DNA of 64,000 bases from a virus: IMG/VR virus record IMGVR_UViG_3300045988_126112, positions 1-64,000 of that record; one strand, 5' to 3'. Of the stretch, positions 5,333-64,000 are shown piece after piece. Under the pieces are notes generated by a model. It searched no databases. It worked only from the letters and a program-made list of their open reading frames with translations, and was not told the DNA's origin. Every line of letters begins with the position of its first letter. Position 1 is the first letter of the stretch. Position numbers and translations under genes: made by a program.

Positions 5333-5364
5333 AACAATATTGTAAAAGGAGAGTGGTGCTAACC

Positions 5365-7518
5365 ATGATTAATAATAACGTAGTATATCAACAAAATGTA
5401 TATATAGACTTTGGTACACAAAATAAATCTTTTATAGATATGCATTTATTTTTAAAAGATATTGGTATAGTAAATAATGCTTTCTTTTTAGTATTAATGG
5501 ATCCAGATTTAGCTGGTGTTAATCCTAGGGATCCTAGATTGAATAGGATGATGAAACAGAAAATATTAAGAGAGTGTATTACTAATTATTATTATTTTAT
5601 AAGAGAAGCAGTAAGAATACCTGATAGTGGGGGTGCTGTTAACTCAGGGATTCCATATAAATTACACAGAGGAAACTTAGCTTTAAACTTTTGTTTAGTA
5701 TATAATTATAATATTAATATAGAATTGCCACGTCAACATGGTAAAACTATGGGAATATGCGTAAGAATATTATGGGAATTCTTATATGGAACAACAAACT
5801 CAGAAATGATGTTCTCTAATAAGAAACATTCAGATGCTAAAGACAACTTACAACGTCTAAAGAACTTAAGAGATGCTTTACCATCTTACTTACAAATGGC
5901 TGAGCAATACGGTATTGATGGTAAACGATTAAAAATTCGTGATAGTGTAGAAACATTATCAAATCCTTTAAATGGAAATAAAATAAGAACTATGCCAGGG
6001 GCTAGAAATAAAGTAAATGCAAACTCACTAGGTAGAGGTTGTACACAACCAAGACAATGGTATGATGAATTTGCATTCATATTATTTAATAAAATTATAT
6101 ATCAATCTGCAACTCCTGCATATAAAACAGCATCTATGAATGCTAAAAAGAATGGAGCTCCTTATGGTATTATTATGTCTACAACTCCTGGTGACATGAC
6201 TACTGACCAAGGATTATATGCATTCCATGTTAAAGAAAATGCTACTCCATTTAGTGAAACTTGGTATGATATGGATAAATCTGAGATAGATGCTTTACTA
6301 TCAAAGAATACTAACTCTGTATTTGTATATATAAGATTTACTTATCAACAATTAGGTTCAGGAGAAGACTATTTTAAAGAAATGGTTATAGAATTAGGTA
6401 AAGACTGGGCAGTAATTCGTCGTGAAGTTTTACTTGAATGGTCTACGAGTTCCGAAAATTCTCCATTTAAGAAAGAAGATTTGGAAAGAGTTAAGTTATA
6501 TATTAAACAACCAATAAAAACTATAACTTTATGTAGATTCTTTAACTTTAATATCTATAAAGAAATGGATAGAAGACATGTTCCTATAATTGGAGTCGAC
6601 GTTTCTGGTGGTTATAATCAAGATAGTTCTGCTGTAACCATAATAGATTCATATACTACAGAAGTAGTAGCAGACTTTAACTGTAACTTTATCTCGATTG
6701 GTGATTTAACTAGAGTTATTTACGAACTGGTGACTAAGTTTATGCCTATGGCAGTTGTAAACGTTGAACGTAATGGTGGATTCGGTGCAACAGTAGTTAG
6801 TGAATTATTGAAAACTAGAATCAAACGTAACTTATACTTTGAAATTAAAGATAGAGTAGTAGAAGAACGTTTCAACGGTATGCATATAGCTAGAACTAAA
6901 CAAAAAACAAAAGTATATGGATTAGATTCAAGTAAAAATATAAGAAACTTATTAATGGAAATACTTAGAGAAAGAATGGAATATCATAAAGATAAATTTG
7001 TTTCTCCAATAATATATTCTGAATTAGAAACTCTTGAAGTTAAACGTAATGGTAAGATTGAACATGCTTCAAATGGACACGATGACCAAATATTCTCATA
7101 CTTAATTGCTTTATATGTATGGTATTATGGTAAGAATGTTATGGAAACTTGGAACATACAAAAACAATCCATAAGAACTGACCAAGATGCTGATGAAGGA
7201 ATAATAAGTTTAGAAGAACAATATGATGATATCTTTGAAGATGTCATGATTGATGAATATAATGACCCAAATGATGTTAAAGGACAATTAGATTACTTAA
7301 ATCAAACTAAAGCTGTATCATATGAACAATCATTAATTAATCAACAAATGCAAGATGAACAAGCTTTGCATATGCTAATACAAAATAATCCATTAGCAAA
7401 GAAAGCATTTGAAAATAAATATGGTATGGAATATGAAAATAATAATTTCGGTAATTATACTATACCAAATAGTGTATTTATGAACTTTAATAATTTTGAT
7501 GATAAAGACATAGGATAA
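5365..7518 (+). CDS. terL: terminase large subunit
   Basis: ATPase Walker A-like ELPRQHGKT and Walker B-like WYDEFAF. The nuclease half has GVDVSGGYNQDSSAVTIID and GHDDQIFSYLIA. The ATG at 5365 is preferred over the track GTG at 5353, which overlaps the SD aaaggagag. Confidence 0.85.
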   Translation: MINNNVVYQQNVYIDFGTQNKSFIDMHLFLKDIGIVNNAFFLVLMDPDLAGVNPRDPRLNRMMKQKILRECITNYYYFIREAVRIPDSGGAVNSGIPYKLHRGNLALNFCLVYNYNINIELPRQHGKTMGICVRILWEFLYGTTNSEMMFSNKKHSDAKDNLQRLKNLRDALPSYLQMAEQYGIDGKRLKIRDSVETLSNPLNGNKIRTMPGARNKVNANSLGRGCTQPRQWYDEFAFILFNKIIYQSATPAYKTASMNAKKNGAPYGIIMSTTPGDMTTDQGLYAFHVKENATPFSETWYDMDKSEIDALLSKNTNSVFVYIRFTYQQLGSGEDYFKEMVIELGKDWAVIRREVLLEWSTSSENSPFKKEDLERVKLYIKQPIKTITLCRFFNFNIYKEMDRRHVPIIGVDVSGGYNQDSSAVTIIDSYTTEVVADFNCNFISIGDLTRVIYELVTKFMPMAVVNVERNGGFGATVVSELLKTRIKRNLYFEIKDRVVEERFNGMHIARTKQKTKVYGLDSSKNIRNLLMEILRERMEYHKDKFVSPIIYSELETLEVKRNGKIEHASNGHDDQIFSYLIALYVWYYGKNVMETWNIQKQSIRTDQDADEGIISLEEQYDDIFEDVMIDEYNDPNDVKGQLDYLNQTKAVSYEQSLINQQMQDEQALHMLIQNNPLAKKAFENKYGMEYENNNFGNYTIPNSVFMNFNNFDDKDIG

Positions 7519-35392: not shown

Positions 35393-35935
35393 ATGATAAA
35401 CAATTCATTATTTACAAGTAAAGACCAAACATGGGAAACACCACAAGATTTATTTGACACTTTAAATAACGTATTCAATTTTGAAGTAGACGTATGTGCA
35501 GTTCCTGAAACTGCTAAGTGTAGTTATTTTTATACACCTGAAATAGATGGTTTATCTCAAACTTGGGATAATACATGTTGGATGAATCCTCCTTATGGAA
35601 GAGAACAAGTTAAATGGATAGAAAAAGCATACAGAGAAAGTTTAAAAACTGGCACTACTGTTGTATGTTTAATACCTGCTAGACCTGATACAAAGGTCTG
35701 GCAGAATATTATATTTCCAAATGCATCAAACATATGTTTCTTAAAAGGAAGACTTAAGTTTGGAAACTCAAAGGACTCAGCTCCTTTTCCATCAGCATTA
35801 ATAGTATTTGGAGATGTTAATCAACAACAATTAGAAGTATTAAACCAATTAGGATATTCAGTTAATGTACTACCTACAGATAGAGTTGTGATACATTATC
35901 ACTATGAACATCCAGGTGGAATAAGATTTTTTTAG
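35393..35935 (+). CDS. dam: phage-type DNA N6-adenine methyltransferase (Dam family)
   Basis: The N-terminus FTSKDQTWETPQDLFD..LN..FNFEVDVCA and catalytic NPPYG are characteristic of the phage N-6-adenine-methyltransferase family. Confidence 0.85.
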   Translation: MINNSLFTSKDQTWETPQDLFDTLNNVFNFEVDVCAVPETAKCSYFYTPEIDGLSQTWDNTCWMNPPYGREQVKWIEKAYRESLKTGTTVVCLIPARPDTKVWQNIIFPNASNICFLKGRLKFGNSKDSAPFPSALIVFGDVNQQQLEVLNQLGYSVNVLPTDRVVIHYHYEHPGGIRFF

Positions 35936-37402: not shown

Positions 37403-38140
37403 ATGGCTAAAGATATGAATAATAAATTAAGAGCTGAATGTGAGCAATTAATTTATAAAGTATTCGATGCCTTAGATCCTAGCAAAACTAATTCAGATTT
37501 CTATAAAGAGAAATTTTCTAAAATGAGTAATGACCAATTTAAGAAATTTATCTCTTTAAGATTTCCATATAGATTATATTTAACTCCTTTTAAAATAGAA
37601 CCAGGAATACCAGAAGCAGAAAAAGCATTGAAAATTCTTGGTGTACCTATGTTAGAAAAGGTTGCATTACCTTACTTATATCAAGATAAAGATGGTAATC
37701 CAGTTACAAGTAAAGAATGTATGGTTGGGTATATGCATATAAAAAAGGTTCAACAATTCGTTACTAAAAAGAATGCAATGTCTGTAGATATATCTCAAAG
37801 AGATATGAAATCTGGTCTTTTACTTAGTCATGATAAAAATGGTAAAGAATCAGATAGAGAATTTGAATCTTTAACAATATATGGATTAAACAATACAATG
37901 AAAGAGTTTGGTACTGTACGTGCCGATGCTATGGATGCTAAGAACTTAGCATATAATAATATAAATACAGTTGGTAGTTTATCTTTAAAAGAATTAGACA
38001 TAGATGATAAAGATTTATTATCTAAAAATATGATGAATGTATATCTTCTTGGTGCATTAATATATTCTGATGTAATAAATGAAGATTACTATTTACCATA
38101 TACATTAGATAATAAGAAGAAAGAATTAGAAAGAAAATAG
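37403..38140 (+). CDS. hypothetical protein
   Basis: 245-aa ORF with SD gaaggtga. No family recognised. Confidence 0.8.
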   Translation: MAKDMNNKLRAECEQLIYKVFDALDPSKTNSDFYKEKFSKMSNDQFKKFISLRFPYRLYLTPFKIEPGIPEAEKALKILGVPMLEKVALPYLYQDKDGNPVTSKECMVGYMHIKKVQQFVTKKNAMSVDISQRDMKSGLLLSHDKNGKESDREFESLTIYGLNNTMKEFGTVRADAMDAKNLAYNNINTVGSLSLKELDIDDKDLLSKNMMNVYLLGALIYSDVINEDYYLPYTLDNKKKELERK

Positions 38141-39188: not shown

Positions 39189-40307
39189 ATGATATCAATT
39201 AAAGTATTAGGAATAGGAGCAGCAGGAAATAAAGCAGCTGCACAATTAATTAAAAGTGGAGTATTAGAAGAATCTTCAGTAAGATTAATAAATAGTACTC
39301 TAGGAGATGTACCAGACGAATTTCAACAAATAGCAATAGCATTAAGTTCTGTTGATGCTGGTTGTGGTAAAGAAAGATCAATGGCTAAAAACTTAGCTAT
39401 ACAAGCACTTAAAACTAACTTAGGAAGAGAGTTAGCTGAATTAATAACAGATGAAGATAGATTAGTTGTTATAACTACTTCAACTGGTGGTGGAACAGGT
39501 GCAGGTTCTTCATTAATTATAGGACAATATATACAAGAAGTATTAGGTAAAAAAGTAATGATTTATGCATTTACAGGATTTGAAGAAGATGCTAGGGAAC
39601 TTAAAAATACTGTAGAATTCTTCAAAGAAATAAATCCAAGCTTTATAGTTCAAGCTACATCAAATAAGAAATTCTTAGATGAAGCACCTAATAAATTAAA
39701 AGCAGAAGAATTAGCTAATAATGAATTCTGTAATAGAATGAATATAATTACAGGACAAGGAATAGTTAACTCTACTCAAAATATAGACGAAACTGACTTA
39801 TTCAAAATAATAACAACTCCAGGTTATATGGATGCAGGATTTATATCAATGTCTAAACTAAAAAATACTGAACAATTTAATTCAAATATAGTTAATTTCT
39901 TAGATGAAAGACATTCATTAGAAACTTCTAAATCTGCTAAAAGATTAGCTGTAGTTGTTAACTTACAAGATAAATATCAAGATTTTGTAGATTATAAATT
40001 TACTCCATTAAAAGATAGATATGGTGTTCCATTTGAAGTATTCAATCATGTACAAGATGTTCAAGAAAACTTAAGTGATTGTATATGGTTTATATCTTCA
40101 GGAATGGCTATGCCTTTAGATGAAGTACAAGAAATATATGATAAATATATAGAAGAAACAAATAAGATAAATAAAGCTCAAGATAATTTTTTTGATGTAG
40201 CTAATCAAATGGTATCTGAAGATATAGATGATATGTTTGATATAAATACTACTGCAAATAAAGCATCAACTACAAAGACAGCTGAATCATTCTTTGAAAA
40301 CTTATAA
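39189..40307 (+). CDS. tubulin/FtsZ-family GTPase (PhuZ/TubZ/FtsZ-like)
   Basis: IKVLGIGAAGNKAA (G1), TSTGGGTGAGSS (tubulin signature GGGTG.G), NIDETDLFKIITTPGYMDAGF (T7-like NxDxxD), and an acidic C-terminal tail SEDIDDMFDI. Confidence 0.85.
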   Translation: MISIKVLGIGAAGNKAAAQLIKSGVLEESSVRLINSTLGDVPDEFQQIAIALSSVDAGCGKERSMAKNLAIQALKTNLGRELAELITDEDRLVVITTSTGGGTGAGSSLIIGQYIQEVLGKKVMIYAFTGFEEDARELKNTVEFFKEINPSFIVQATSNKKFLDEAPNKLKAEELANNEFCNRMNIITGQGIVNSTQNIDETDLFKIITTPGYMDAGFISMSKLKNTEQFNSNIVNFLDERHSLETSKSAKRLAVVVNLQDKYQDFVDYKFTPLKDRYGVPFEVFNHVQDVQENLSDCIWFISSGMAMPLDEVQEIYDKYIEETNKINKAQDNFFDVANQMVSEDIDDMFDINTTANKASTTKTAESFFENL

Positions 40308-43032: not shown

Positions 43033-43042
43033 ATATATTATA
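43033..43042 (+). promoter_or_regulatory. ATATATTATA promoter-like motif
   Basis: Exact 10-mer 60 nt upstream of ATG 43093. The hairpin 43042-43069 lies between the motif and the SD. Confidence 0.4.
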
Positions 43043-43074
43043 TGAGTGATAGAGAAATCTATCACTCATCTTTA
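43042..43074 (+). terminator. hairpin (weak terminator or leader structure)
   Basis: An 11-bp stem atgagtgatag/ctatcactcat with loop agaaat. Only cttt follows. Confidence 0.45.
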
Positions 43075-43092: not shown

Positions 43093-45294
43093 ATGAAAAT
43101 TGATGTTATCGACAAAGTAAAGGAAATGGAGGATCAATTTCCTTCAATGGAGTATTTATTATGTAAAGGATTGATGATGCCATTCAATCCTTCAAATTCA
43201 GGTAGTAGAAAACAAATGATGGCAGCTCAACTTGAGCAAGGATTAGAGTTATATCATTCTGAATTACCAAGAGTACAAACTGGATATGAAAATAGATTTG
43301 GTGACAGATCTTCTTCATTAATAATTGCAGATAAAGAGTATGTGGTAGTTCACAAAATAAGTAAATTTAGTTTTGATCCAGATAGATTCTATTATCTAAT
43401 TATCTATGATACTAAGGGTAATTCATTTGATATGATTACTAAACAAGAGTATCAATATATAACAGAATCTTATGGAATCTTATACAATACAAAATATATG
43501 GATAAACTTAGACCAGGTGTTAAGATTAATAAAGGTGATACAATAAGAAAATCTTTAGCTTATGATGAATTTAATAATAGATGTGATGGTGTAAATCTTA
43601 TGTCTACTTATTTATCATCAGAAGAAACAAAAGAAGATGGTATTTGGATTTCTGAAACAGCTTCTAAGCTATTGGCGTGTCCATTAGTAAAGAAAGTACA
43701 AATTCAAATAAATGATAATGATATACCATTAAATCTGTACTATGATGATGTAGAAAGAGATTATAAATCATTTCCAGATGTAGGTGAAAATACAGATAGA
43801 ACTAATGGTGTATTAATGGGTATAAGACGTATGAAGAAAGAAGAAATACTATTCACTCAAAACAAAAATAATTTATCAAAAATAATGCTTAGTGATGATG
43901 TATTTACAGCTTCAGGAACTGTAGTAGATGTTGATATATATTGTAATAATCCAGAAACATTATCAAAATATGTTCATTTTGGACAATTACAATTTTATCA
44001 TCAAGAACAAATGGCTTTCATGAATGATTTTATATCTAAAGTTGGTCCATTGATAGAGTCTGGATATAATTGCTCTTATGAGATGAAAAAATTATATCAT
44101 AGATTCAAAAAGATATATTATGGTGGGCAATATCTTAAAGATAATGTCTTCTCAAATACAATATTAGAATTGACATTAGTTGAATATAATCCAGTTGAAG
44201 TTGGTGATAAGATAGCTAACAGATATGGAGGTAAAGGTGTTGTATCAAAAATAAGTCCAGATAATATGATGCCTTTATTAGATAATGGTAGAAGGGTAGA
44301 TTTAATCTATAATGGTTCTACTTGTATAAATAGAGAGAATAATGGACAATTAAATGAAATGTTTCTTAATTATGCAAGTAATAGAATTGTGGATCATGTA
44401 AGAAGTTTAGATGGTTCATTTGACTTAAATTATACTATAAATCTATATATAGATTATCTTAATATTCTTAATCCTAATTTAGCTGAAAGAATGGAGCAAT
44501 ATATACTTTCAGCAGAATTGGATGACCAAGTTGCATTTATGCAATATATATTTGATGAAGGATTTATACTTTCATTAGACCCTATGTGTGATATCAATAT
44601 AGATACATTATATAAGATTTGGAAGAAATTCGGATTCATAAAACAATACAATGTTGTTGTACCTCAAATAGGTTCAGATGGTAATTATAGATATGTAAAA
44701 ACTAGAAGAACTCTTGAATGTGGTGAACAATATATTTGGCGTTTAAAACAATATGCTGAAGAAAAGTTTTCTACAGTTTCATTATCAGCAACAAACTTAA
44801 AAAATGAAAATACTAGAAACAGCAGTAAGAAATCATATAAATCTCCACATGCAAAAACTTGTGTAAGATTTGGTGATATGGAAACTGGTAATATGCTTCA
44901 TTTAGGTATAGAACCATTGATTACAAATCTAATGATGCTATCTTTAGCACCTAAAGCTAGAAGAAGATTAGGAACTGAATTAACTGAAGGTCCTTTATTT
45001 GATTTAGATGTTAAACTTCATCCTGAAGATAGTAACAGAAGTGTAGAAATATTGAATGCTTATCTTATAACTATAGGATTGAAACTTACTTTTACTAAAG
45101 TGCCTAAAAAGTTTATATATCCTATAAAATATAATATAAATGGTGTTCCAGTTTTAAATAAAGATGATACTACTTATCATCCTGCAATAACTTATATTGA
45201 TAAGAAAGGAAATCAATTTATAGGAGATTATGAACCTGTAAATCCTATAGATAATTTAAAAGAAGTTATTCATTGGAACAGAAAGGAAAAATAA
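43093..45294 (+). CDS. rpoB: multisubunit RNA polymerase beta subunit, C-terminal half
   Basis: MMPFNPSNSGSRKQMMAAQLEQ matches the [22 protein letters not shown] region, NRYGGKGVVSKI matches RHGNKGVIS, MMPLLDNGRRVDLIYN matches DMPY..DG.PVDIVLNP, and RFGDMETGNM matches RFGEMEVWA. Confidence 0.85.
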   Translation: MKIDVIDKVKEMEDQFPSMEYLLCKGLMMPFNPSNSGSRKQMMAAQLEQGLELYHSELPRVQTGYENRFGDRSSSLIIADKEYVVVHKISKFSFDPDRFYYLIIYDTKGNSFDMITKQEYQYITESYGILYNTKYMDKLRPGVKINKGDTIRKSLAYDEFNNRCDGVNLMSTYLSSEETKEDGIWISETASKLLACPLVKKVQIQINDNDIPLNLYYDDVERDYKSFPDVGENTDRTNGVLMGIRRMKKEEILFTQNKNNLSKIMLSDDVFTASGTVVDVDIYCNNPETLSKYVHFGQLQFYHQEQMAFMNDFISKVGPLIESGYNCSYEMKKLYHRFKKIYYGGQYLKDNVFSNTILELTLVEYNPVEVGDKIANRYGGKGVVSKISPDNMMPLLDNGRRVDLIYNGSTCINRENNGQLNEMFLNYASNRIVDHVRSLDGSFDLNYTINLYIDYLNILNPNLAERMEQYILSAELDDQVAFMQYIFDEGFILSLDPMCDINIDTLYKIWKKFGFIKQYNVVVPQIGSDGNYRYVKTRRTLECGEQYIWRLKQYAEEKFSTVSLSATNLKNENTRNSSKKSYKSPHAKTCVRFGDMETGNMLHLGIEPLITNLMMLSLAPKARRRLGTELTEGPLFDLDVKLHPEDSNRSVEILNAYLITIGLKLTFTKVPKKFIYPIKYNINGVPVLNKDDTTYHPAITYIDKKGNQFIGDYEPVNPIDNLKEVIHWNRKEK

Positions 45295-45296
45295 AT

Positions 45297-47648
45297 ATGT
45301 ATGAATATTTAAAACAAATGTTAGAGTATATAAAGACATATAATGAATTGCCAAAAGATTCAATTCAATTTAATGATATATGTTTAGAGTTGTATAATAA
45401 CAGTAATAACTTAAATGATTACCAAGTCCAGTCTTTGGACTTGGTTTTAAAAATATGTAATACAGTTTATGAGAATTCATCTACTGTATTAATAGATGAT
45501 GATTTTTATGATCATCTAGTTGAAATATATAGAAAGTATAATGGAGATTTCAGAATTGGTGCAGAAACCATAGACATAAATGAAATGAGAAATGTAATTA
45601 CTTTTATAAAGAAACCTGAAGAAAGAGATGTTATAAGTTATAATAAGTATAATGAAGATAATATGATGTTTTATAAAGATTTATCGTATAATAGTCCTTT
45701 GGATAAATATGATTTGAAGAAACAAAATTATACTTATAATGGAGATATATCTAAAAGAAAAGTTTTAGATAGTCAATTATATCCAAGTCTTGTAGGTACA
45801 TTGGACAAATGTAAATTTGTTTTAGATAGTCAAGCAAAAGAAAAAGGAGTTTATAATGAACCAAATGTTAAAATATTTGAAAGAGATTTTCTAATCAAAC
45901 ATATGAAAATGGGAATTATAAATCCACATGACAAATACACATTAATAGCAGAATTGAAATATGATGGTATTTCAATATGTGCTGAAGTACAAAATGGTGT
46001 TATAATATCAGCAAATACAAGAGGAGATGTTAAAGATGATTTATCAGCTGATTTAACTCCTATATTTGCAGGATATAAATTTTATAGAGTTAATGAAGAT
46101 ATATCTAATGGTGAAAAATATGGTGTTAAATTTGAAGCCGTAATGACAAAATATAATCTTATGATGTATAATCAAATGAAAGGAAGAAGTTATGCTAATG
46201 GTAGAACAGCCATAATAGGATTACTATCTTCTTCAGATGCCTATAAATATAGAGATTTGATAACATTGGTTCCATTGGATTGGTCTTATAGTGATCAAAT
46301 GACTGAGTTAGGTGATAATTATGAATTAGCATATATATTAGGAACTAGAAAGATGCAAATTCAATTACTTAACGATAGATTTAGAAATGGTCAAATTAAT
46401 AGATTTACTATAATGGAAGGAGATTATAAGAGTCTATTATTCCAAGTAAAAAGATTTGTTGAAGAAGCAGAAATGATGAGAGATTTTATTCCATATATGT
46501 ATGATGGAGTAGTAATATCTTATGATGATCCTTCAATAAGAAAACAACTAGGTAGAGAGCATAGTGTAAATAAATATAGTATAGCTATAAAATTTAGTGC
46601 TTTAAAGAAAAGTACTATATTTACTGGTTATACTTATACAGTAGGTCAAGATGGTAGTATAACTCCAATGATACATTATAATCCTGTAATGTTCTTTGGA
46701 ACTATACATGACAAAGCAAGTGCTCATTCATATGATAGATTTATGAAACTTGGTTTAAGAAAAGGAGATGTAGTTGATGTTGAGTATACTAATGACGTAA
46801 TGGCTTATGTTACTAAACCAGATAATAGTCATAATGCTAGTAATAATAATCCATTAGAAGTATTTCCAACTCATTGTCCTTCATGTGGTAGTAAACTTGT
46901 TATAAGTAAATCTGGTAAACAAGTTATGTGTGAAAATAAAGATTGTCCAGAAAGAAATATTAGAAGAATTGATAATATGTTTAAGAAGTTAAATATAAAA
47001 GATTTTTCTGAAGCTTATCTTACAAGAATAGGAAGATATCATTTAAAAGATTTAATGAGTTTAACTAAAGATGATGTATCTTTCTTAGGAGAAGTTAATT
47101 CTCAAAAATTTGTAGATAGTATGAGATATTTACAAACTAATCCAATATATGATTATAAAATCATAGGTTCATTAGGATTCAATAATGTAGGTAGTGAGAA
47201 ATGGAAAATCATATTTACAAAATATGACTTACATGAATTTGTTAACTTAATGAATAATAACTGTCTTCCTATGGAAAGTTTAACTAATCTTAAAGGATTG
47301 GGTCCTGAGACAGTTAATACAATCTTTAATGAATATGAATTCTTTAAAGAAGATATTATGTTTATAGAAACTTTTAAAAATGTAAAATCTATTAAACATG
47401 ATATTGAGAATATAAATATAAAGAAGATAAGATTCACAGGTGTTAGAGATAGTGAACTTATTAACTTTGTATCAAACATGGGACATGATATTAATGGAAC
47501 TGGAAGTGTTACAAAAGATACAGATATATTAATAGTCCCATATGAAAATTATTCAAGTTCAAAAGTTTCAAAGGCGATATCAAATGGAAACACTTTAATA
47601 GTCCCAATTGATACGTTTAAGGAAAACTTAAATGAGTATCTAAAGTAA
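45297..47648 (+). CDS. ligA: NAD-dependent DNA ligase (LigA family)
   Basis: Adenylation motif ELKYDGISI (KxDG), Zn finger CPSCGSKLV...CENKDCPE, HhH-like region, and a C-terminal BRCT-like IRFTGVRDSEL. ATG 45297 follows the upstream stop, and the track TTG at 45273 overlaps the upstream gene. Confidence 0.85.
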   Translation: MYEYLKQMLEYIKTYNELPKDSIQFNDICLELYNNSNNLNDYQVQSLDLVLKICNTVYENSSTVLIDDDFYDHLVEIYRKYNGDFRIGAETIDINEMRNVITFIKKPEERDVISYNKYNEDNMMFYKDLSYNSPLDKYDLKKQNYTYNGDISKRKVLDSQLYPSLVGTLDKCKFVLDSQAKEKGVYNEPNVKIFERDFLIKHMKMGIINPHDKYTLIAELKYDGISICAEVQNGVIISANTRGDVKDDLSADLTPIFAGYKFYRVNEDISNGEKYGVKFEAVMTKYNLMMYNQMKGRSYANGRTAIIGLLSSSDAYKYRDLITLVPLDWSYSDQMTELGDNYELAYILGTRKMQIQLLNDRFRNGQINRFTIMEGDYKSLLFQVKRFVEEAEMMRDFIPYMYDGVVISYDDPSIRKQLGREHSVNKYSIAIKFSALKKSTIFTGYTYTVGQDGSITPMIHYNPVMFFGTIHDKASAHSYDRFMKLGLRKGDVVDVEYTNDVMAYVTKPDNSHNASNNNPLEVFPTHCPSCGSKLVISKSGKQVMCENKDCPERNIRRIDNMFKKLNIKDFSEAYLTRIGRYHLKDLMSLTKDDVSFLGEVNSQKFVDSMRYLQTNPIYDYKIIGSLGFNNVGSEKWKIIFTKYDLHEFVNLMNNNCLPMESLTNLKGLGPETVNTIFNEYEFFKEDIMFIETFKNVKSIKHDIENINIKKIRFTGVRDSELINFVSNMGHDINGTGSVTKDTDILIVPYENYSSSKVSKAISNGNTLIVPIDTFKENLNEYLK

Positions 47649-47680
47649 TAAATTATAACCAAGGAAACATAATTATAATT

Positions 47681-47690
47681 ATATATTATA
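47681..47690 (+). promoter_or_regulatory. ATATATTATA promoter-like motif
   Basis: Exact 10-mer 71 nt upstream of ATG 47752. Confidence 0.45.
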
Positions 47691-47751
47691 AGTATGATAA
47701 ACAATAATAATTGTTTATAAATATTATTTAAATTATTAGGAGGATTGTAAT

Positions 47752-48399
47752 ATGAAAGTAAACTTAAAAGAAAGCCAATTATTAGTTCAATTAGTAGAAA
47801 ACGTGAGTAGAGTTCAAGGTCTAAGAATATCTGATGTTAACTGGGAAATGATGATAGAAGATCTTAGTACAGCTATTTACAAATTCTTAGCTATAGCTAA
47901 GGATAAAGACAAAAAAGTAGCATTAGTATTTACTGATGCATCAGAAGCTCATAACTTCTTAATAGCAGCTATCATTGAATATCATAAAAATGATGATTCA
48001 GATGAAGTTGGAGGAAACTGGAGCTTCGTTTATACATTCAACAAAGAAGATGTAACTGACTGTGAAATCATTCATGCGAATGACCCTAAATTCATACAAG
48101 CTTTTAATGATGTAACTAGTGAATCATTAAAAGATAAACATGGTGATATGACAGGTTATACAGTAGACGGAATGATAGTAACTAAAATATTTGAAGCTAT
48201 ATTTAAATATCTAAAAATATGGCTAGACACTAACGCTAGAACAGATGAGGTTGTAGACTTAGTTTTAGAAGACCACTTTGAAGCATCTGTAGCAGTAGAA
48301 GATGGAATCAAAGTAATGTCTATGGTCCCACATGGTAGAGCTAAGTCTCAAATAAAAGATGACGATGCTGTATCACAAGATGTAAGCTTAGATAAATAA
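47752..48399 (+). CDS. hypothetical acidic protein (monocistronic)
   Basis: 215-aa ORF with SD taggagga, its own promoter motif and a terminator. No family recognised. Confidence 0.8.
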   Translation: MKVNLKESQLLVQLVENVSRVQGLRISDVNWEMMIEDLSTAIYKFLAIAKDKDKKVALVFTDASEAHNFLIAAIIEYHKNDDSDEVGGNWSFVYTFNKEDVTDCEIIHANDPKFIQAFNDVTSESLKDKHGDMTGYTVDGMIVTKIFEAIFKYLKIWLDTNARTDEVVDLVLEDHFEASVAVEDGIKVMSMVPHGRAKSQIKDDDAVSQDVSLDK

Positions 48400-48425
48400 T
48401 TTATAAAGTAGTATAAAAATATAAT

Positions 48426-48457
48426 AAACCATGTGTTAACTCACATGGTTTATTTTT
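48426..48457 (+). terminator. rho-independent terminator
   Basis: Stem aaaccatgtg/cacatggttt with loop ttaact, followed by attttt. Confidence 0.8.
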
Positions 48458-48480
48458 AATTTCGAAAGAGAGGTAAAAAC

Positions 48481-49185
48481 ATGAGTATGAAAAAAGCTAT
48501 TCTGAATGATAAAATGTACAATCTAATATCTAAAGAAGAATTCTTTTCTAAGAAAGATTATTATAATTCTATTAGTTCAGTAGCTATAGAAGAAGAAATG
48601 ATAGTTGATGGAGAAAGAGTAACTGTAGGATTACCAATAACACAATCAAAAAATGTTACAGGAGCTTATTCTGAAGAGGATTCACCATTAATCTTCTTTA
48701 CAAATAAAGACGAAAGTTATGATAAATATATATGTCAAGATAGTAATGTAATTGACTTTTCTAATATTGATAATATGAGTCAATATTATGAAAACTGTAT
48801 TAAGTATAATGATGCTGAAAGAGAAATTATAACTAATACAATTAATCAATCAAAACCTGTAATAAAGGAAGATGATTCACCTTTATTAAAGATAACAAAG
48901 CAAACTATCTGCGATAAGAATATAGATATGGATAAATATGCAGATAGATTTGAGCAATACAATAATGATAAAAGATTAGTAAGTTCCTCAAAGAAAGATA
49001 TTACAATGAAGAAAGCATCAATGATGTTAGATAAACTAGATGTTGACACTTATGTAATAACTACAAATAAAGAAGGAGATATTCCTAATCCAATGCCAGG
49101 ACCATTGATAAGAAAAGTATCTGGTGAAGGAGAAGAATTAACAGTTGATGAATTGATAAAATTATTAAAAGGAGAGGAAGAATAA
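48481..49185 (+). CDS. hypothetical protein
   Basis: 234-aa ORF with SD agagagg. Confidence 0.75.
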   Translation: MSMKKAILNDKMYNLISKEEFFSKKDYYNSISSVAIEEEMIVDGERVTVGLPITQSKNVTGAYSEEDSPLIFFTNKDESYDKYICQDSNVIDFSNIDNMSQYYENCIKYNDAEREIITNTINQSKPVIKEDDSPLLKITKQTICDKNIDMDKYADRFEQYNNDKRLVSSSKKDITMKKASMMLDKLDVDTYVITTNKEGDIPNPMPGPLIRKVSGEGEELTVDELIKLLKGEEE

Positions 49186-49186
49186 T

Positions 49187-50920
49187 ATGTTATCACAAGC
49201 AGAATTCTTTAGAGAATTTAATAACGATACAAAAATCGAATTCAATGATGCTCTATTTGATAGAGATCAAGATGAAATAATGATGGAGCTGATGAAAGTA
49301 ATTTTATCAGCTCAAAGAGAACAAATATTTACAATAAAAGTATTATCATTTGTTATAAATGATGACCCAGATAAAATAGATAAGATATTAGCTGATTATG
49401 TAAATTATACAGAAAGAAATATTAAGAAAAAGAAACCAAATGAATATGAGTATGTAAATCTTAGAGATAGTGATGTAAGATTACTTACAGTACATTATCT
49501 TATAAAAGATAAGAATGATTCAGAAATACTTAAAGTTCATATATTATTACCAAGAATAGTTGATAAGTATTATTTTAGAATAGGTGGTAATATGTGGTTA
49601 GCTATGTTACAAATAGTAGATGGAAGCACATACAATAACTCTTTATCTAATAATCCAAGAAAAGCAAGTGTTACTTGTAAGACAGTAATGCCTTCAAGAA
49701 TATTTAAAAACTTTGGAACTTTAGAAGACATGAGTGGTGAAAATATAGAATGTGTATATTTTACTAGTAATATATTTAAGAAGACTTTACCATTGTTCAA
49801 ATATATATTAGCTAAATATGGATACTTTGATGGTAAAAGATTTGTTGAAATATCTGATATAGAATTGACTTCTGCACCTAGTACAAATAAAGAAGACTAT
49901 TGTGTTAAACTTAAAGATGGAATATATATTTCAGTTCCTAGATATTTGTTTGATAATGACCAAGTAGTTCAATCATTCTTTTATACTATGGCAATGAGTA
50001 TAATGAATGATAAAAGAGCAACTATGGAAAAGGTTATTACAAGAGATTATTGGTTAGAAGTTTTAGGAGCTGAATTTAAAACAGCTACAGTTAAAAAAGG
50101 ATTAGAATTACTTAACTCTTTAGAAGGTATATATGATATATCCACTAAGGAAGACTTAAGATTAGATGATTATACTAAAAGAAATATTTATTCTATCTTA
50201 TTGTGGATAGTAAGAGAATTTGCTAGACTAAAAGTAAAAGATAACCTTGATGTAAGACTTAAATATGTAAGATATGGAAAATATATAGCATCATTATATT
50301 CCATGAAACTTATAAAAGGTCTTAAGAGATTAACTGATAGTAAAAATAAAGTAGAGATAAAATCTATAGTAAGAGCTATAAAGACAAAACCTACATTCTT
50401 ATTAGATGAGATATGTAAGTGTAATCTTATAAACTATAGAAACTTGGTAAATGACCAAGATGCTTTATTAGCATTAAAATATTCATTTAAAGGTGTATCT
50501 GGTATAGGTGATAATAATAATAAATCTATACCTGATATATATAGACATGCACATTATAGTCATTTAGGAATATTAGATACAGATAGTAGTCCTAAATCAG
50601 ACCCAGGAATAAGTGGAGTTCTTTGTCCAATGATTAAACTTCATGATAATTATTTTACAGATTATAAGGAACCAGATTATTGGGAAGAAGAATTTAAGAG
50701 AACTTTAGATGAGTATAAACAAATGACTTCTAGGAAAGAAGTAATTAAGTTTAAACAAGAGTTAGGATTGAAAGTTGATAGTGAAGAATTGACAATCATA
50801 GAAAAGAACATCGAAATATCTAAAGGATTGATTGATGTTATCAAATTCAATTATGAAGATGAAAGACTAGCTAAGTTTAAACCAATAATAGATATGGGAG
50901 GAATGATTTATTTTGAGTAA
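49187..50920 (+). CDS. rpoB: multisubunit RNA polymerase beta subunit, N-terminal half
   Basis: DIYRHAHYSHLGILDTDSSPKSDPGISGVL matches the RpoB region EVRDVH.SHYGR.CPIETPEG.N.GLI. It is tightly coupled to the upstream gene. Confidence 0.7.
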   Translation: MLSQAEFFREFNNDTKIEFNDALFDRDQDEIMMELMKVILSAQREQIFTIKVLSFVINDDPDKIDKILADYVNYTERNIKKKKPNEYEYVNLRDSDVRLLTVHYLIKDKNDSEILKVHILLPRIVDKYYFRIGGNMWLAMLQIVDGSTYNNSLSNNPRKASVTCKTVMPSRIFKNFGTLEDMSGENIECVYFTSNIFKKTLPLFKYILAKYGYFDGKRFVEISDIELTSAPSTNKEDYCVKLKDGIYISVPRYLFDNDQVVQSFFYTMAMSIMNDKRATMEKVITRDYWLEVLGAEFKTATVKKGLELLNSLEGIYDISTKEDLRLDDYTKRNIYSILLWIVREFARLKVKDNLDVRLKYVRYGKYIASLYSMKLIKGLKRLTDSKNKVEIKSIVRAIKTKPTFLLDEICKCNLINYRNLVNDQDALLALKYSFKGVSGIGDNNNKSIPDIYRHAHYSHLGILDTDSSPKSDPGISGVLCPMIKLHDNYFTDYKEPDYWEEEFKRTLDEYKQMTSRKEVIKFKQELGLKVDSEELTIIEKNIEISKGLIDVIKFNYEDERLAKFKPIIDMGGMIYFE

Positions 50921-51119
50921 AGTATATTTTATGTTTAGCTCTCAACAAGCTAATTTAAGAAAAGAAGTAGAAGGTTTTAAATACACTCCAGGAACAGTAT
51001 TAGTCAATGGTAGATATAAACAATATACTGAAATTGTCTCTGATCCTGATAATGCAACATATCCAGATGCCATAGTTGTGGCATCTGGAGAAAAATCTAG
51101 AATGATATATAGAAAGTAG
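50913..51119 (+). CDS. hypothetical protein
   Basis: 68-aa ORF with a TTG start 10 nt after gggagga, overlapping the end of the previous gene. The start is uncertain, with an alternative ATG at 50931. Confidence 0.55.
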   Translation: MSKVYFMFSSQQANLRKEVEGFKYTPGTVLVNGRYKQYTEIVSDPDNATYPDAIVVASGEKSRMIYRK

Positions 51120-55592: not shown

Positions 55593-55659
55593 TTCTGGTA
55601 TACTTTTAAGATTATAAAAACAATATATTAATCAAAAAATTTGAAGGAGGTCCTGTGTG

Positions 55660-57609
55660 ATGCTTAAAAAGTATATTGAAGGTTCAAATGTTAGTCTTTT
55701 AAATACAATGTATTTATATCCAAAAAGACAAGAAAATGGTAAATATGACCATGGGTCAATGACATTAGTTTATAAAGATTTAAACACAAATGAAAAACAT
55801 GTAGAATGTATTGATGACCCAGAAATAGAATATTATGTTTTAAATGAAGGTGAAAGAGTTCCACCTAAAGCATTATTTGTAGAGAAAGATAAAGTAACAA
55901 TGAAAACAAGTAAATTTAGAAATCTTGAAAGAGATTTAGCTAAACTTACTGGAAAGGAAGACTTTTATAAAGAAAATATCTATAATGGTAATAGATATAT
56001 GAATAGACATATTCATAGTGATAGTATAAACATATTCAATAGCGATATGAATATCAACGATTTTTATAGATACAAATTTGATAGACTGTATAAGAATAAA
56101 CCATTTAAACCTACTAAATCTTATTTCGATATAGAAGTTGATGGTTTACATCAAATGGGAGATTTCCCAGAACCAGGTGAATGTCCTATAAATGCTATAA
56201 CATATATAGATTCAGACCATATGTGTGTATTAACTTTATTACTTCGTAATGGTGCCGAACCAAATCCATTAATAGAAGAATTTGAAGATTCTGTAAATGA
56301 TGAATTATATACAAAATTAAAATCATTTATAAGAGAAAGAGTTGGTGGAGAAAAGAATGAAAGAAAATTTGGATTAGATAAAATGCAATATAAGATATTA
56401 TTTTATGACAAAGAAATACAATTAATATATGATTTCTTTAATATAGTAAATAAGTTTAAACCAGATTTCTTATTGGCATGGAATATGCGTTTCGACGTTC
56501 CATACATCATTCAAAGAATACTAAACTTAGGATATGACCCAGCTATAATAGCTTCACATCCAGATTTTGAACATAAACATTTTTCATATTATATTGATAA
56601 TAGAGCTGAAGAAGTTCCTGAAAGATGTGATGCTTGTAAAATATCTTCTTATAGTGTATATATAGATCAAATGATTCAATTTGCTTCAAGACGTAAAGCT
56701 AAGAAAGGAGCTTTTGCAAGTTGGAAACTTGATTATATAGGTGATGTAACTACAGGTATTAGAAAATTAGATTATTCTCATATAACTACAGATATAGCTA
56801 AATTACCATATCTTAATTATGAAGTATTTGTTTTCTATAATATAATGGATACAATTGTTCAATATTGTATTGAGCATAAAGTTAACGATGTTGATTTCTT
56901 AATCAATAAAGCTATGGTTAATAATACAAGATATGAAAAAGTTCATAGACAAACTGTATATTTAGCTAATAGAGCTACAAAGTTCTTTAATAATATGGAT
57001 TTAGTAATATCAAATAATAAGAATGTATTTAATCCTAAACCAACTGAAAAATTTCCAGGTGCTCATGTAGCTGATCCTAAGAGAGTAAATAATTATTCTA
57101 AAATGAAACTTAATGGTGTACCTATAATGATATTCCAAAACCTAGATGACTTTGATTATAAATCAATGTACCCTAGTGATATATCAGAATTTAATATAGC
57201 AACTAATACTCAAATAGGAAGAATACTTATAAAAGATAAAATATATGAAAATGAAAATCCATATAAATCTGAATATTATTGTAGAGAGGGAGCTTTCATT
57301 GAAGACTTCCATAGTCACAATTATATTGAATTCTCTCGTAGATGGTTTAACCTTGCTGGATATATAGATTTATGTAAAGATATTGAATATTACTTTAACT
57401 TTATAAGAAGACCTCAAGTTCTTCCTAGCATGACTTATGATGGACAAAAAGTAGTTATAAACTATTTAGGAAGAAAAGATGATAATCTTAAAGATGTAAT
57501 TACTTTCCATAAAACTAAAGAAGTTATACATTCCAATGAAGTTCAACCAGATATGACAGATATTATAAACAGTATCAATGTAAATCAAATAGTATATAAA
57601 GAAAACTAA
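55660..57609 (+). CDS. family-B DNA polymerase, N-terminal part only (3'-5' exonuclease domain plus polymerase motif A)
   Basis: ExoI YFDIEVD, ExoII WNMRFDVPYI, ExoIII YNIMDT, and motif A LDDFDYKSMYPS. No K...NS.YG (motif B) or YGDTDS (motif C) occurs before the stop, and a strong terminator follows. Confidence 0.8.
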   Translation: MLKKYIEGSNVSLLNTMYLYPKRQENGKYDHGSMTLVYKDLNTNEKHVECIDDPEIEYYVLNEGERVPPKALFVEKDKVTMKTSKFRNLERDLAKLTGKEDFYKENIYNGNRYMNRHIHSDSINIFNSDMNINDFYRYKFDRLYKNKPFKPTKSYFDIEVDGLHQMGDFPEPGECPINAITYIDSDHMCVLTLLLRNGAEPNPLIEEFEDSVNDELYTKLKSFIRERVGGEKNERKFGLDKMQYKILFYDKEIQLIYDFFNIVNKFKPDFLLAWNMRFDVPYIIQRILNLGYDPAIIASHPDFEHKHFSYYIDNRAEEVPERCDACKISSYSVYIDQMIQFASRRKAKKGAFASWKLDYIGDVTTGIRKLDYSHITTDIAKLPYLNYEVFVFYNIMDTIVQYCIEHKVNDVDFLINKAMVNNTRYEKVHRQTVYLANRATKFFNNMDLVISNNKNVFNPKPTEKFPGAHVADPKRVNNYSKMKLNGVPIMIFQNLDDFDYKSMYPSDISEFNIATNTQIGRILIKDKIYENENPYKSEYYCREGAFIEDFHSHNYIEFSRRWFNLAGYIDLCKDIEYYFNFIRRPQVLPSMTYDGQKVVINYLGRKDDNLKDVITFHKTKEVIHSNEVQPDMTDIINSINVNQIVYKEN

Positions 57610-62785: not shown

Positions 62786-63547
62786 CTAAAATGTGAATAT
62801 CATTGGTTGATTTTTATTTGCAAATGATACATAACTACTTTCAAGTATATCTATAACTTCTACTCTTGATTCAGCTTTAGTACGTAAATCATCTAGTTTT
62901 ATATCTACATTTGCAAATACTGTTTCTAATCCATCATAATATTTAAGTTCTTCATATAAGAATGTAGCTACATCTGCTATAGCTAGACGTTCAAATATCT
63001 CCATTTTAGTTGGAGCTATAGTTTGTAAATTTATGTGTTTTACAAATATCCATAAATAGAATGAATTCCATTGCTTAGTTACATCTATATTAAATGATGA
63101 TTTTAATGCTATTTTATTTGGATATTCAAAGTCTAAATATATACCATTATTATACATAGATATATTATCAGCTGCATTTTGTAAACCAACTATACTTTCT
63201 AAATCCATTGGTTGTACATACCAGTCTGTTATACCATATCCATATGCACCAAATATAGCACTATTTTTTGGTTCATCCCAAGCTATATCTTTTACACCTA
63301 AGATTTTAACTCCTGGTCCAATCTTATCTTCATCTATAATCCAGTAATCACCTTTTTTAGTAGCTATTTCATTTATTTCTACTTTTAAAGCATGAGGAAA
63401 ATATCTAGAAAAAGTTTCTAATGTTTCTTCATTAATAACATTTACCCATTCAGGTTTAGATAATTCTTTTGGTAATTGTAATTGTCTAGTACCTAAACGT
63501 CTTTCTATCTTATTTAACAATCTAGTCATATCATTACTTAAAGCCAT
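62786..63547 (-). CDS. virion morphogenesis protein, possibly T4 gp13-like neck protein
   Basis: The N-terminus LLNKIERRLGTRQLQLPKELSKPEWVNVINEETLETFSRYFP parallels the gp13 N-terminus ..ILRRLGAPIINVEL...I...AL.LY (recalled from memory). SD aggagtga. Confidence 0.4.
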   Translation of the reverse strand: MALSNDMTRLLNKIERRLGTRQLQLPKELSKPEWVNVINEETLETFSRYFPHALKVEINEIATKKGDYWIIDEDKIGPGVKILGVKDIAWDEPKNSAIFGAYGYGITDWYVQPMDLESIVGLQNAADNISMYNNGIYLDFEYPNKIALKSSFNIDVTKQWNSFYLWIFVKHINLQTIAPTKMEIFERLAIADVATFLYEELKYYDGLETVFANVDIKLDDLRTKAESRVEVIDILESSYVSFANKNQPMIFTF

Positions 63548-63560
63548 AATAAATCACTCC

Positions 63561-64000
63561 TTATAGTTTATAGCAATAATTCATTAATTCATTTGTAATA
63601 TAGTTTTCAAGGTTTATTACAAATGAAGTACCTAAATTATCAGAAAGCATAACTTTTGTTCCTCCATCTATAACTTGCACATTTTCATATAAGAATTCTA
63701 GACTGTCTACAACTGAGTTTAAATTAGTTGATTCAGTTTTTACATAGTCTATTACTTCTTTATTAGTTATAGGAACTATAGTACTTGCACTTTCATCTAA
63801 TATAAGTTTATTTCCTTCTATATCTCTATCTAGTTCTTCTATAGATTCATTTACTTTTCCATATTCTCCTAATATCTTTTGCATATAAGCTTTCTTATGA
63901 GAAGGGAATACAACCCAGTCATAAGTAATAAGTCTTATATTTTTTACTTCTGCACCTCTAGAAGTATTTTGCACAGTACCTAAAGCTCTTAAAGAAAATG
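63561..64000 (-). CDS. prohead core protease, T4 gp21-like (S77 family), C-terminal part; 5' end outside window
   Basis: The frame stays open to the window edge, and the track 'M' is an internal GTG. FSLRALGT matches SSRGLGS (catalytic Ser context) and YDWVVFPSHKKA matches VDAVWGPSAPDA of gp21 (recalled from memory). Confidence 0.45.
   Translation of the reverse strand, partial: FSLRALGTVQNTSRGAEVKNIRLITYDWVVFPSHKKAYMQKILGEYGKVNESIEELDRDIEGNKLILDESASTIVPITNKEVIDYVKTESTNLNSVVDSLEFLYENVQVIDGGTKVMLSDNLGTSFVINLENYITNELMNYCYKL

Follow-up and report, generated by a model that had tools for sequence, protein, structure and literature searches.

The closest described systems to the one considered here are the RNA polymerases (RNAPs) of the Bacillus jumbo phages AR9 and PBS1. 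The non-virion RNAP (nvRNAP) of AR9 is composed of gp270, gp154, gp105, gp089 and gp226, with neither an alpha nor an omega subunit (PMC9209446), and its beta subunit is made as two polypeptides, gp105 and gp089 (PDB 7S00, 7S01, 7UM0 and 7UM1). The nvRNAP genes are early genes that are read by a second enzyme, the virion RNAP, from promoters with the consensus AAATATATATTAT-(6N)-G+1 (PMC5312081), and the promoters annotated in AR9 agree with this consensus. The nvRNAP of phiKZ (PDB 7OGP) belongs to the same class of enzyme but is much more distant, and in that phage the promoters are different (TATG) and the host has thymine DNA (PMC5312081). Here we describe a locus in a 64,000-nucleotide (nt) stretch of viral DNA (IMG/VR record IMGVR_UViG_3300045988_126112, positions 1 to 64,000; the window), in which an earlier reading of the sequence alone (the original prediction) had recognized the two halves of a bacterial-type RNAP beta subunit.

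We estimate a probability of about 0.9 that the two open reading frames (ORFs) in question encode the N-terminal half and the C-terminal half of beta (betaN and betaC; Table 1) of an AR9/PBS1-type nvRNAP, and that they belong to an uncultivated human-gut jumbo phage of ~244 kb and 26% GC. The window corresponds to about 175,420-239,419, reverse strand, of the ENA ERZ918339 contig k127_120508 (244,046 bp, human gut); it is AT-rich (~26% GC) and coding nearly throughout, on the + strand. For comparison, the whole genome of AR9 (KU878088) was put together from annotated stretches and every window ORF was compared with it, and the contig was read past the window by way of exact-sequence matches, with about 100 of its 244 kb covered in all. 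The broader proposal of the original prediction, that this phage has a multisubunit RNAP of its own, is supported by the full-length homology of both chains to the AR9 beta chains, by synteny, and by a gene for the N-terminal half of beta' (beta'N) on the same contig.

The two halves of the beta subunit

The translation of the betaC gene contains MMPFNPSNSGSRKQMMAAQ at residue 28, NRYGGKGVVSKI at residue 376 and RFGDMETGNM at residue 592, and the beta motifs NRYGGKGV and RFGxME are retained in it together with the PF...SGSRK segment. Profile searches matched it to Pfam RNA_pol_Rpb2_6 (E 1e-13; 51.7 bits against a gathering cut-off of 23.4), to the NCBIfam rpoB models (E 2e-19) and to phrog_3295 'RNA polymerase beta subunit' (E 5.5e-87, residues 21-669). 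The best PDB match was 7S00_C, gp089 of the AR9 nvRNAP (E 9e-72; residues 13-665 versus 10-646), and tblastn placed betaC on AR9 73270-75156, which is g089, at 31% identity. The betaC proteins of the Staphylococcus jumbo phages S6, PALS_2, SA1 and UFV_DC4 were matched with similar strength (30.5-30.7% identity over 90%, E about 1e-72), and the match to phiKZ was to 7OGP_C (E 4e-13). Judged by homology that lies well above chance, this ORF is unambiguously the C-terminal half of beta, as had been proposed from the peptides quoted in the original prediction, all of which are present. The one detail requiring correction is that betaC was thought to begin exactly at its MMPF segment, since 27 residues stand before MMPF, as they do in AR9 gp089.

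The assignment of betaN as the N-terminal half was likewise sustained. This protein carries YRHAHYSHLGILDTDSSPKSDPGISG at about residue 453, and its best PDB match was 7S00_c (AR9 gp105, 'RNA polymerase beta subunit'; E 8e-36; residues 86-495 versus 66-477), with a further match to phrog_2943 (E 3e-15). By tblastn it fell on AR9 83578-84786, that is g105, at 27% identity. R363 of gp105, a residue of the pocket for the -10 uracil, aligns with an identical residue, R381, in betaN. In comparison with gp105, betaN is 81 amino acids (aa) longer, mostly at the C-terminus, and in the Staphylococcus jumbo phages the N-terminal half was undetected by tblastn with this betaN at E < 0.01.

The position at which beta is divided is the same as in AR9, after HxSHxG...DPGxSG and before (M/I)P(F)...R..M, and the ends of the alignments coincide. 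The archaeal split RpoB (B'/B'') and the split beta' of cyanobacteria resemble this arrangement in that a large catalytic subunit is made as two polypeptides. However, the suggestion that archaeal RpoB is divided at a similar place does not agree with a review of these enzymes, which states that the beta split sites of jumbo phages differ from the archaeal one and that only the beta' split coincides with that of cyanobacteria (PMC7598289).

Table 1. Features of the betaN-betaC locus and of related loci in the window and on the same contig (positions are those of the window unless a contig piece is named).
Feature	Position	Strand	Size	Basis and remarks
Extreme C-terminal fragment of virion-RNAP beta, homologous to the RNAP portion of AR9 g078	37403..38140	+	245 aa	tblastn; phrog_3233
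AR9-type early promoter-like motif, ATATATTAT-N6-G	43033..43048	+		Ends 44 nt before the betaC ATG (core 52 nt)
nvRNAP beta C-terminal half (betaC), AR9 gp089 homologue	43093..45294	+	733 aa	Homology; ATG to TAA
NAD-dependent DNA ligase, AR9 g095 homologue, no RNAP part	45297..47648	+		Pfam adenylation, OB and Zn domains; phrog_3869, E 4e-88; tblastn to g095
Second early promoter-like motif, ATATATTAT-N6-G	47681..47696	+		Ends 55 nt before 47752 (core 63 nt)
Conserved clade-specific gene	47752..48399	+	215 aa	No Pfam match; weak phrog_13343 match
Terminator-like hairpin with T-rich tail, possibly leaky	48423..48454	+	13-bp stem	Between the 215-aa and 234-aa genes
Conserved clade-specific gene	48481..49185	+	234 aa	No family match
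nvRNAP beta N-terminal half (betaN), AR9 gp105 homologue	49187..50920	+	577 aa	Homology
Conserved small gene	50913..51119	+	68 aa	TTG start; alternative ATG at 50931 gives 62 aa
gp226-position gene	L025:14283-15800, ~13.5 kb past window end		505 aa	Synteny and weak similarity
Virion-type beta'N, AR9 g145 homologue	L027:15206-16912, ~19 kb past window end	-	568 aa	32% identity, E 1e-58

Gene order

The original prediction had correctly placed the C-terminal half upstream of the N-terminal half, with ligA and two ORFs without a family match between them, but had described this order as permuted. The order in AR9 is the same, running from a UvsX-like recombinase (g086) through g089 (betaC), the NAD ligase (g095) and g105 (betaN) to a small ORF, and it is the ancestral AR9/PBS1 arrangement and no peculiarity of this phage. 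The likeness extends well beyond the RNAP genes, in that about 45 kb of the window follow the AR9 order from g002 to g114, the collinear set being SbcD, DnaB, RecD, GyrB, GyrA, g052, g078, UvsX (g086), g089, the ligase (g095) and g105. After the g105 homologue there is a transposed block (SbcC, DNA polymerase and helicase), followed by homologues of g112 and g114. The placing of betaC before betaN, with UvsX upstream of both and the ligase separating them, is synteny inherited in a compacted form: from betaC to betaN the cluster occupies 7.8 kb here versus 11.6 kb in AR9. The interval does not contain the AR9 genes g090-g094 and g096-g104 (those for Ugi, Ku and HU among them) and has three clade-specific genes instead; no Ugi homologue was found anywhere in the window.

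Two relatives on metagenome contigs (L021 and L022, with betaN 58% and 43% identical, respectively, and betaC 60% and 39% identical) share the order UvsX, betaC, ligase, a gene of ~200 aa, a gene of ~220 aa, betaN, a gene of ~70 aa and SbcC. The genes are closely packed: the likely start of the ligase (taking ENA gene calls into account as well) is the ATG 2 nt past the betaC stop, the stop of the 234-aa gene is 1 nt upstream of the betaN ATG, and the 68-aa gene shares 8 nt with the end of betaN and is preceded by a Shine-Dalgarno sequence, GGGAGGA, in keeping with the translational coupling of both genes to betaN that had been suggested. In other AR9-like gut lineages (L012 and L023) betaN lies directly upstream of beta'N, which indicates that the UvsX-betaC-ligase-betaN order is not universal and that the placement of RNAP genes differs by lineage. 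The two genes in these lineages (L012 1310-4338, 43% GC; L023 8322-11332) share a base between the end of betaN and the start of beta'N, and are located downstream of GyrA and HU.

A single rpoB gene that had been broken by insertions and had decayed would also leave two separated halves, and the genes standing between them, together with a betaN that is too divergent for Pfam, are what such non-functional remnants might look like. We consider this extremely improbable, given that both ORFs are intact and have ribosome-binding sites, that their full length and arrangement are retained across a clade of hundreds of sequence clusters, at 39-60% identity, which is similar to the ligase and UvsX, and that the same split in AR9 gives an active and structurally solved enzyme.

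Early promoter motifs

The core ATATATTAT of the AR9 early promoter occurs 42 times in the window versus 17 expected, and the extended form ATATATTAT-N6-G occurs 18 times versus 2.5 expected, a seven-fold excess that was reached in none of 100 shuffles. Fourteen of the 18 extended matches are intergenic (intergenic DNA being 6% of the window) and every one of these 14 faces the next gene, with sites at, for example, 11784, 16399, 18802, 22067, 25638, 31699, 33195, 40323, 43033, 47681, 51302, 55583, 57673 and 59993. One such motif precedes betaC and is retained in both L021 and L022; the motif at 47681-96 heads the cluster that contains betaN, being upstream of the 215-aa gene, and its equivalent is retained in L021 but not in L022. 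Based on these motifs, betaC and the cluster holding betaN are predicted to be under early promoters of the virion RNAP. A scan of the region for sigma-70 promoters returned sites that were no more numerous than in shuffled sequence.

Two potential secondary structures accompany these transcription units. The terminator-like hairpin between the 215-aa and 234-aa genes may attenuate transcription ahead of the latter. An inverted repeat, GTGATAGAGAAATCTATCAC, at 43045-43066 extends over the +1 predicted for the early promoter of betaC, and a similar hairpin follows the motif in L021; the repeat may act as a 5' stem-loop or as an operator.

The virion RNAP genes

The original prediction anticipated a second beta set for a separate virion enzyme, and part of it was found to lie inside the window, where it had been missed. 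The virion beta fragment listed in Table 1 matched AR9 63319-63717 and 65383-65568, both within g078, by tblastn, and phrog_3233 'RNA polymerase beta subunit' with an E of 2e-25 (3-222 of 225), and it can be aligned, weakly, to the final conserved block of bacterial beta. It does not have the N-terminal HD domain that is present in AR9 (g078), PBS1 and BpSp. No early-promoter motif was found upstream of it, as would be expected for a late gene.

A virion-type beta'N of 568 aa is encoded past the end of the window on the same contig. It aligned to AR9 g145 over residues 25-551, matches NCBIfam rpoC at the catalytic region and contains GGDYDGDQV with the catalytic DYDGD; the genome thus does hold a beta' gene. 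Together with the g078-like beta fragment it makes up the virion set found in this genome, and a companion virion RNAP with a g078-like piece and a g145-like beta'N is a further likeness to AR9. The beta'N gene is one uninterrupted ORF, and AR9 g145 has two introns with homing endonucleases.

Given that this group of jumbo phages has two beta sets (PMC7598289), it could be argued that betaN and betaC are themselves pieces of the virion-packaged RNAP and not of the non-virion enzyme. This is very improbable. In tblastn and phmmer comparisons with AR9 the two ORFs matched only g089 and g105, which are annotated as non-virion, and neither of them matched the virion beta genes g189 and g078. Moreover, virion beta is split at a different place (PMC7598289), and the separate g078-like fragment stands elsewhere in the window. 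The early motif is found on both beta transcription units, as expected for nvRNAP genes, whereas the virion fragment is without it.

Candidate genes for the remaining nvRNAP subunits

The original prediction had sought beta' and any specificity subunit either outside the window or among the ORFs without family matches beside betaN. Outside the window there are the beta'N of the virion type described above and a gene of 505 aa in the position of gp226, the sigma-like fifth subunit of AR9. The neighbors of the 505-aa gene are homologues of GroEL (g228), g227 and primase (g225), as they are for gp226 in AR9. Its product is weakly similar to phrog_25005, the PHROG of gp226 (E 0.0087, collinear, 56-489 versus 33-450 of 464), and, by pairwise BLASTP, to gp226 itself (23% identity over 307 aa, E 8e-5), with V206-I207-W of gp226 aligned with P230-I231-W. 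No PDB sequence match was obtained for it.

Within the window no DxDGD was found in any frame and no ORF resembled AR9 gp270, gp154, g264 or gp226 by phmmer. The search for beta' motifs that had been recommended was successful to the extent of the virion-type DYDGD protein, while the non-virion beta' was not located in the part of the contig that was read. On other contigs of the gut clade a g264 homologue has beside it a g270-like beta'N containing NADFDGD, but these contigs could not be tied to this genome. A search with AR9 gp270 gave 231 matches, and this phage was not among the 120 listed; a beta'N profile scan of metagenome contigs gave 80 loci, none of which overlapped the known region of this phage. 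A similar scan of GTDB genomes retrieved mostly beta' genes of candidate phyla radiation (CPR) bacteria, and an amino-acid composition filter for beta' candidates gave no discrimination.

Several individual sequences were considered as the beta'N of this phage and rejected. P0057, P0104 and P0297 come from phages that differ from this one in GC (43-64%) or in the order of their genes, and P0606 is from a phage with 20% GC. L098 and L099 fit in GC (26%) but belong to a distinct species, and for P0691, on a 247-kb contig of 27.5% GC, no link to this genome was established. L098 (9671-11158) and L099, from a gut phage of 26% GC, encode a non-virion beta'N in which the motif is the canonical NADFDGD; in AR9 gp270 and in the virion beta'N of the present phage it is DYDGD.

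There are a number of observations that weigh against the assignment of betaN and betaC to an AR9-type nvRNAP. The recommended comparison of both ORFs with hidden Markov models was positive throughout for betaC (Pfam, NCBIfam and PHROG), whereas betaN was recognized by PHROG and had no match among the Pfam or NCBIfam models. In the uracil pocket only R363 is identical, there being no identical residue in betaN aligned with K375 or N382 of gp105. The homologues of AR9 g270 and g154 that would encode beta'N and beta'C of the nvRNAP were not located in the window or in about 36 kb of flanking sequence. Lastly, the 505-aa gene is a candidate counterpart of gp226 by its synteny and weak similarity, and its structure model, which was built from an alignment of near-identical sequences only, had a predicted local distance difference test (pLDDT) score of 33.7 and was unusable.

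With these points taken into account, an AR9/PBS1-type nvRNAP remains the assignment that we favor, and from homology and synteny with AR9 (PMC9209446, PMC7598289) we infer the following timing, assembly and independence from the host enzyme. A virion-packaged RNAP, to which the virion beta fragment and the 568-aa beta'N would contribute, would come into the cell with the DNA and would start at early promoters of the form ATATATTAT-N6-G, among them the ones ahead of betaC and of the cluster holding betaN. The two halves of beta would be translated separately and never joined, and would form, with a split beta' and with a fifth subunit of sigma-like type (possibly the 505-aa protein), an enzyme without alpha or omega. 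The assembled enzyme would then read the late genes independently of the host polymerase.

Clade-specific genes beside betaN

The 215-aa, 234-aa and 68-aa ORFs are real genes, judging by the retention of their positions and sequences in relatives. Positional homologues of the 215-aa protein (49% identity in L021 and 32% in L022) are named 'hypothetical protein' in all sources. The 234-aa protein (52% in L021 and 30% in L022, where its gene overlaps the start of betaN) has a family of 239 representative homologues, all about 205-225 aa long. The 68-aa protein is 59% (L021) and 40% (L022) identical to proteins encoded at the same position, and does not align to AR9 g106, the occupant of that position in AR9. 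In L021 and L022 the three genes are about as conserved as betaN.

It had been suggested that these genes might supply beta' pieces or the specificity subunit. However, phmmer comparisons of them with AR9 g087-g107, gp226 and the beta' genes detected nothing. An AlphaFold (AF2) model of the 234-aa protein, made from a 100-sequence alignment, had a pLDDT of 93.5 and a predicted TM-score (pTM) of 0.71, and Foldseek found no significant match for it in the PDB (best E 0.19, TM about 0.1) and only its own family in BFVD. Partial helix-turn-helix-like matches were dismissed as noise (HipB in the PDB at a probability of 0.15; repressors and antitoxins in BFVD at E 0.2-1.6). A role for these genes as a beta' piece or a sigma-like subunit is therefore unsupported.

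A different possibility is that the 234-aa protein, and perhaps the 68-aa and 215-aa proteins, are extra clade-specific subunits or assembly factors, in which case the enzyme would be a variant of the AR9 design and not a plain copy. Among relatives with as little as 43% identity in betaN the genes keep their places beside it, and the start of betaN is in every case abutted or overlapped by the 234-aa gene. The product of that gene has a family of 239 representative members and is predicted to fold confidently into a structure without a known relative, and none of the three genes has a homologue in AR9. Nonetheless, we consider this unlikely in view of the fact that unrelated early genes of phages are often adjacent and coupled, that none of the proteins is similar to sigma, gp226, alpha, omega or beta', that the terminator-like hairpin parts the 215-aa gene from the rest, and that four polypeptides suffice for an active AR9 core (PMC7598289). 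The more specific proposal, that the 234-aa protein, possibly with the 68-aa protein, is a new accessory subunit or assembly factor of an alpha-less RNAP, is slightly more doubtful still; if true, the AR9 design would have, in this clade, a variant made of six or seven polypeptides.

Other genes in the window

A tubulin/FtsZ-family GTPase is encoded at 39189-40307 (+; Pfam Tubulin, E 6e-8), with best PDB matches to FtsZ (E 7e-9) and not to PhuZ or TubZ; it has no AR9 counterpart, is conserved in L021, and may be a phage cytoskeletal protein in this AR9-like lineage. The phage, which is related to phages with uracil DNA, also encodes an N6-adenine DNA methyltransferase of the Dam type at 35393-35935 (+; Pfam, E 2e-26). 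The family B DNA polymerase gene at 55657-57609 (+) matches only the one gene of the split AR9 polymerase (g132) that encodes the exonuclease and part of the catalytic region, and the g152-like catalytic part is not in the window, which suggests that the polymerase is probably split here too. The large terminase gene at 5353-7518 (+) is one continuous ORF, of which residues 19-227 and 281-596 were matched to AR9 g121, a homologue joined from five pieces, with a short unmatched linker between them. Among the homologues of intron-containing AR9 genes, those covered in this phage (terminase, GyrA, g078 and g145) are all without introns or homing endonucleases, of which AR9 has several.

The phage and its clade

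No megablast match to this DNA was found among GenBank phages, and the search of IMG/VR gave neither an exact match nor a close relative. The protein encoded by betaC was identical on human-gut metagenome contigs of 244,046 and 245,515 bp (the latter ENA ERZ19289564 NODE_27), and proteins of this phage were found on dozens of gut contigs of 241-248.5 kb. The same phage is present in an NCBI metagenome-assembled genome (MAG) labelled Romboutsia timonensis (locus tags ACLR5O_00095-01815), in which all of its proteins are named 'hypothetical protein', although its presence there could be a binning artefact. Going by the MAG label, the host is probably a gut clostridial bacterium. A g270-like beta'N is deposited under Romboutsia ilealis (P0666), which is a hint of a host only and could also be a binning artefact.

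A search of metagenomes with betaN returned 783 sequence clusters, comprising a small subclade at 55-99% identity together with hundreds of others, at 42-48%, whose contigs measure 212-382 kb, from which we conclude that this phage belongs to a large, uncultivated clade of gut jumbo phages. The architecture of its beta genes, including the C-before-N order with the ligase between, has already been described, and the phage is a new, divergent member of the AR9/PBS1 type at 27-31% identity; the picture of how such enzymes work is not changed by it. The finding does extend the alpha-less split RNAP of the AR9/PBS1 type, known from a few cultured Bacillus and Staphylococcus phages, to a very large uncultivated clade of phages of 230-380 kb, which occur commonly in the guts of humans and animals and form hundreds of sequence clusters; the RNAP genes of this clade are all now labelled 'hypothetical protein'. 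In the window the ATATATTAT-N6-G sites provide a ready map of early transcription units. The conservation of both the gene order and the virion-RNAP motif at about 30% protein identity indicates that the two-polymerase programme as a whole is ancient and stable.

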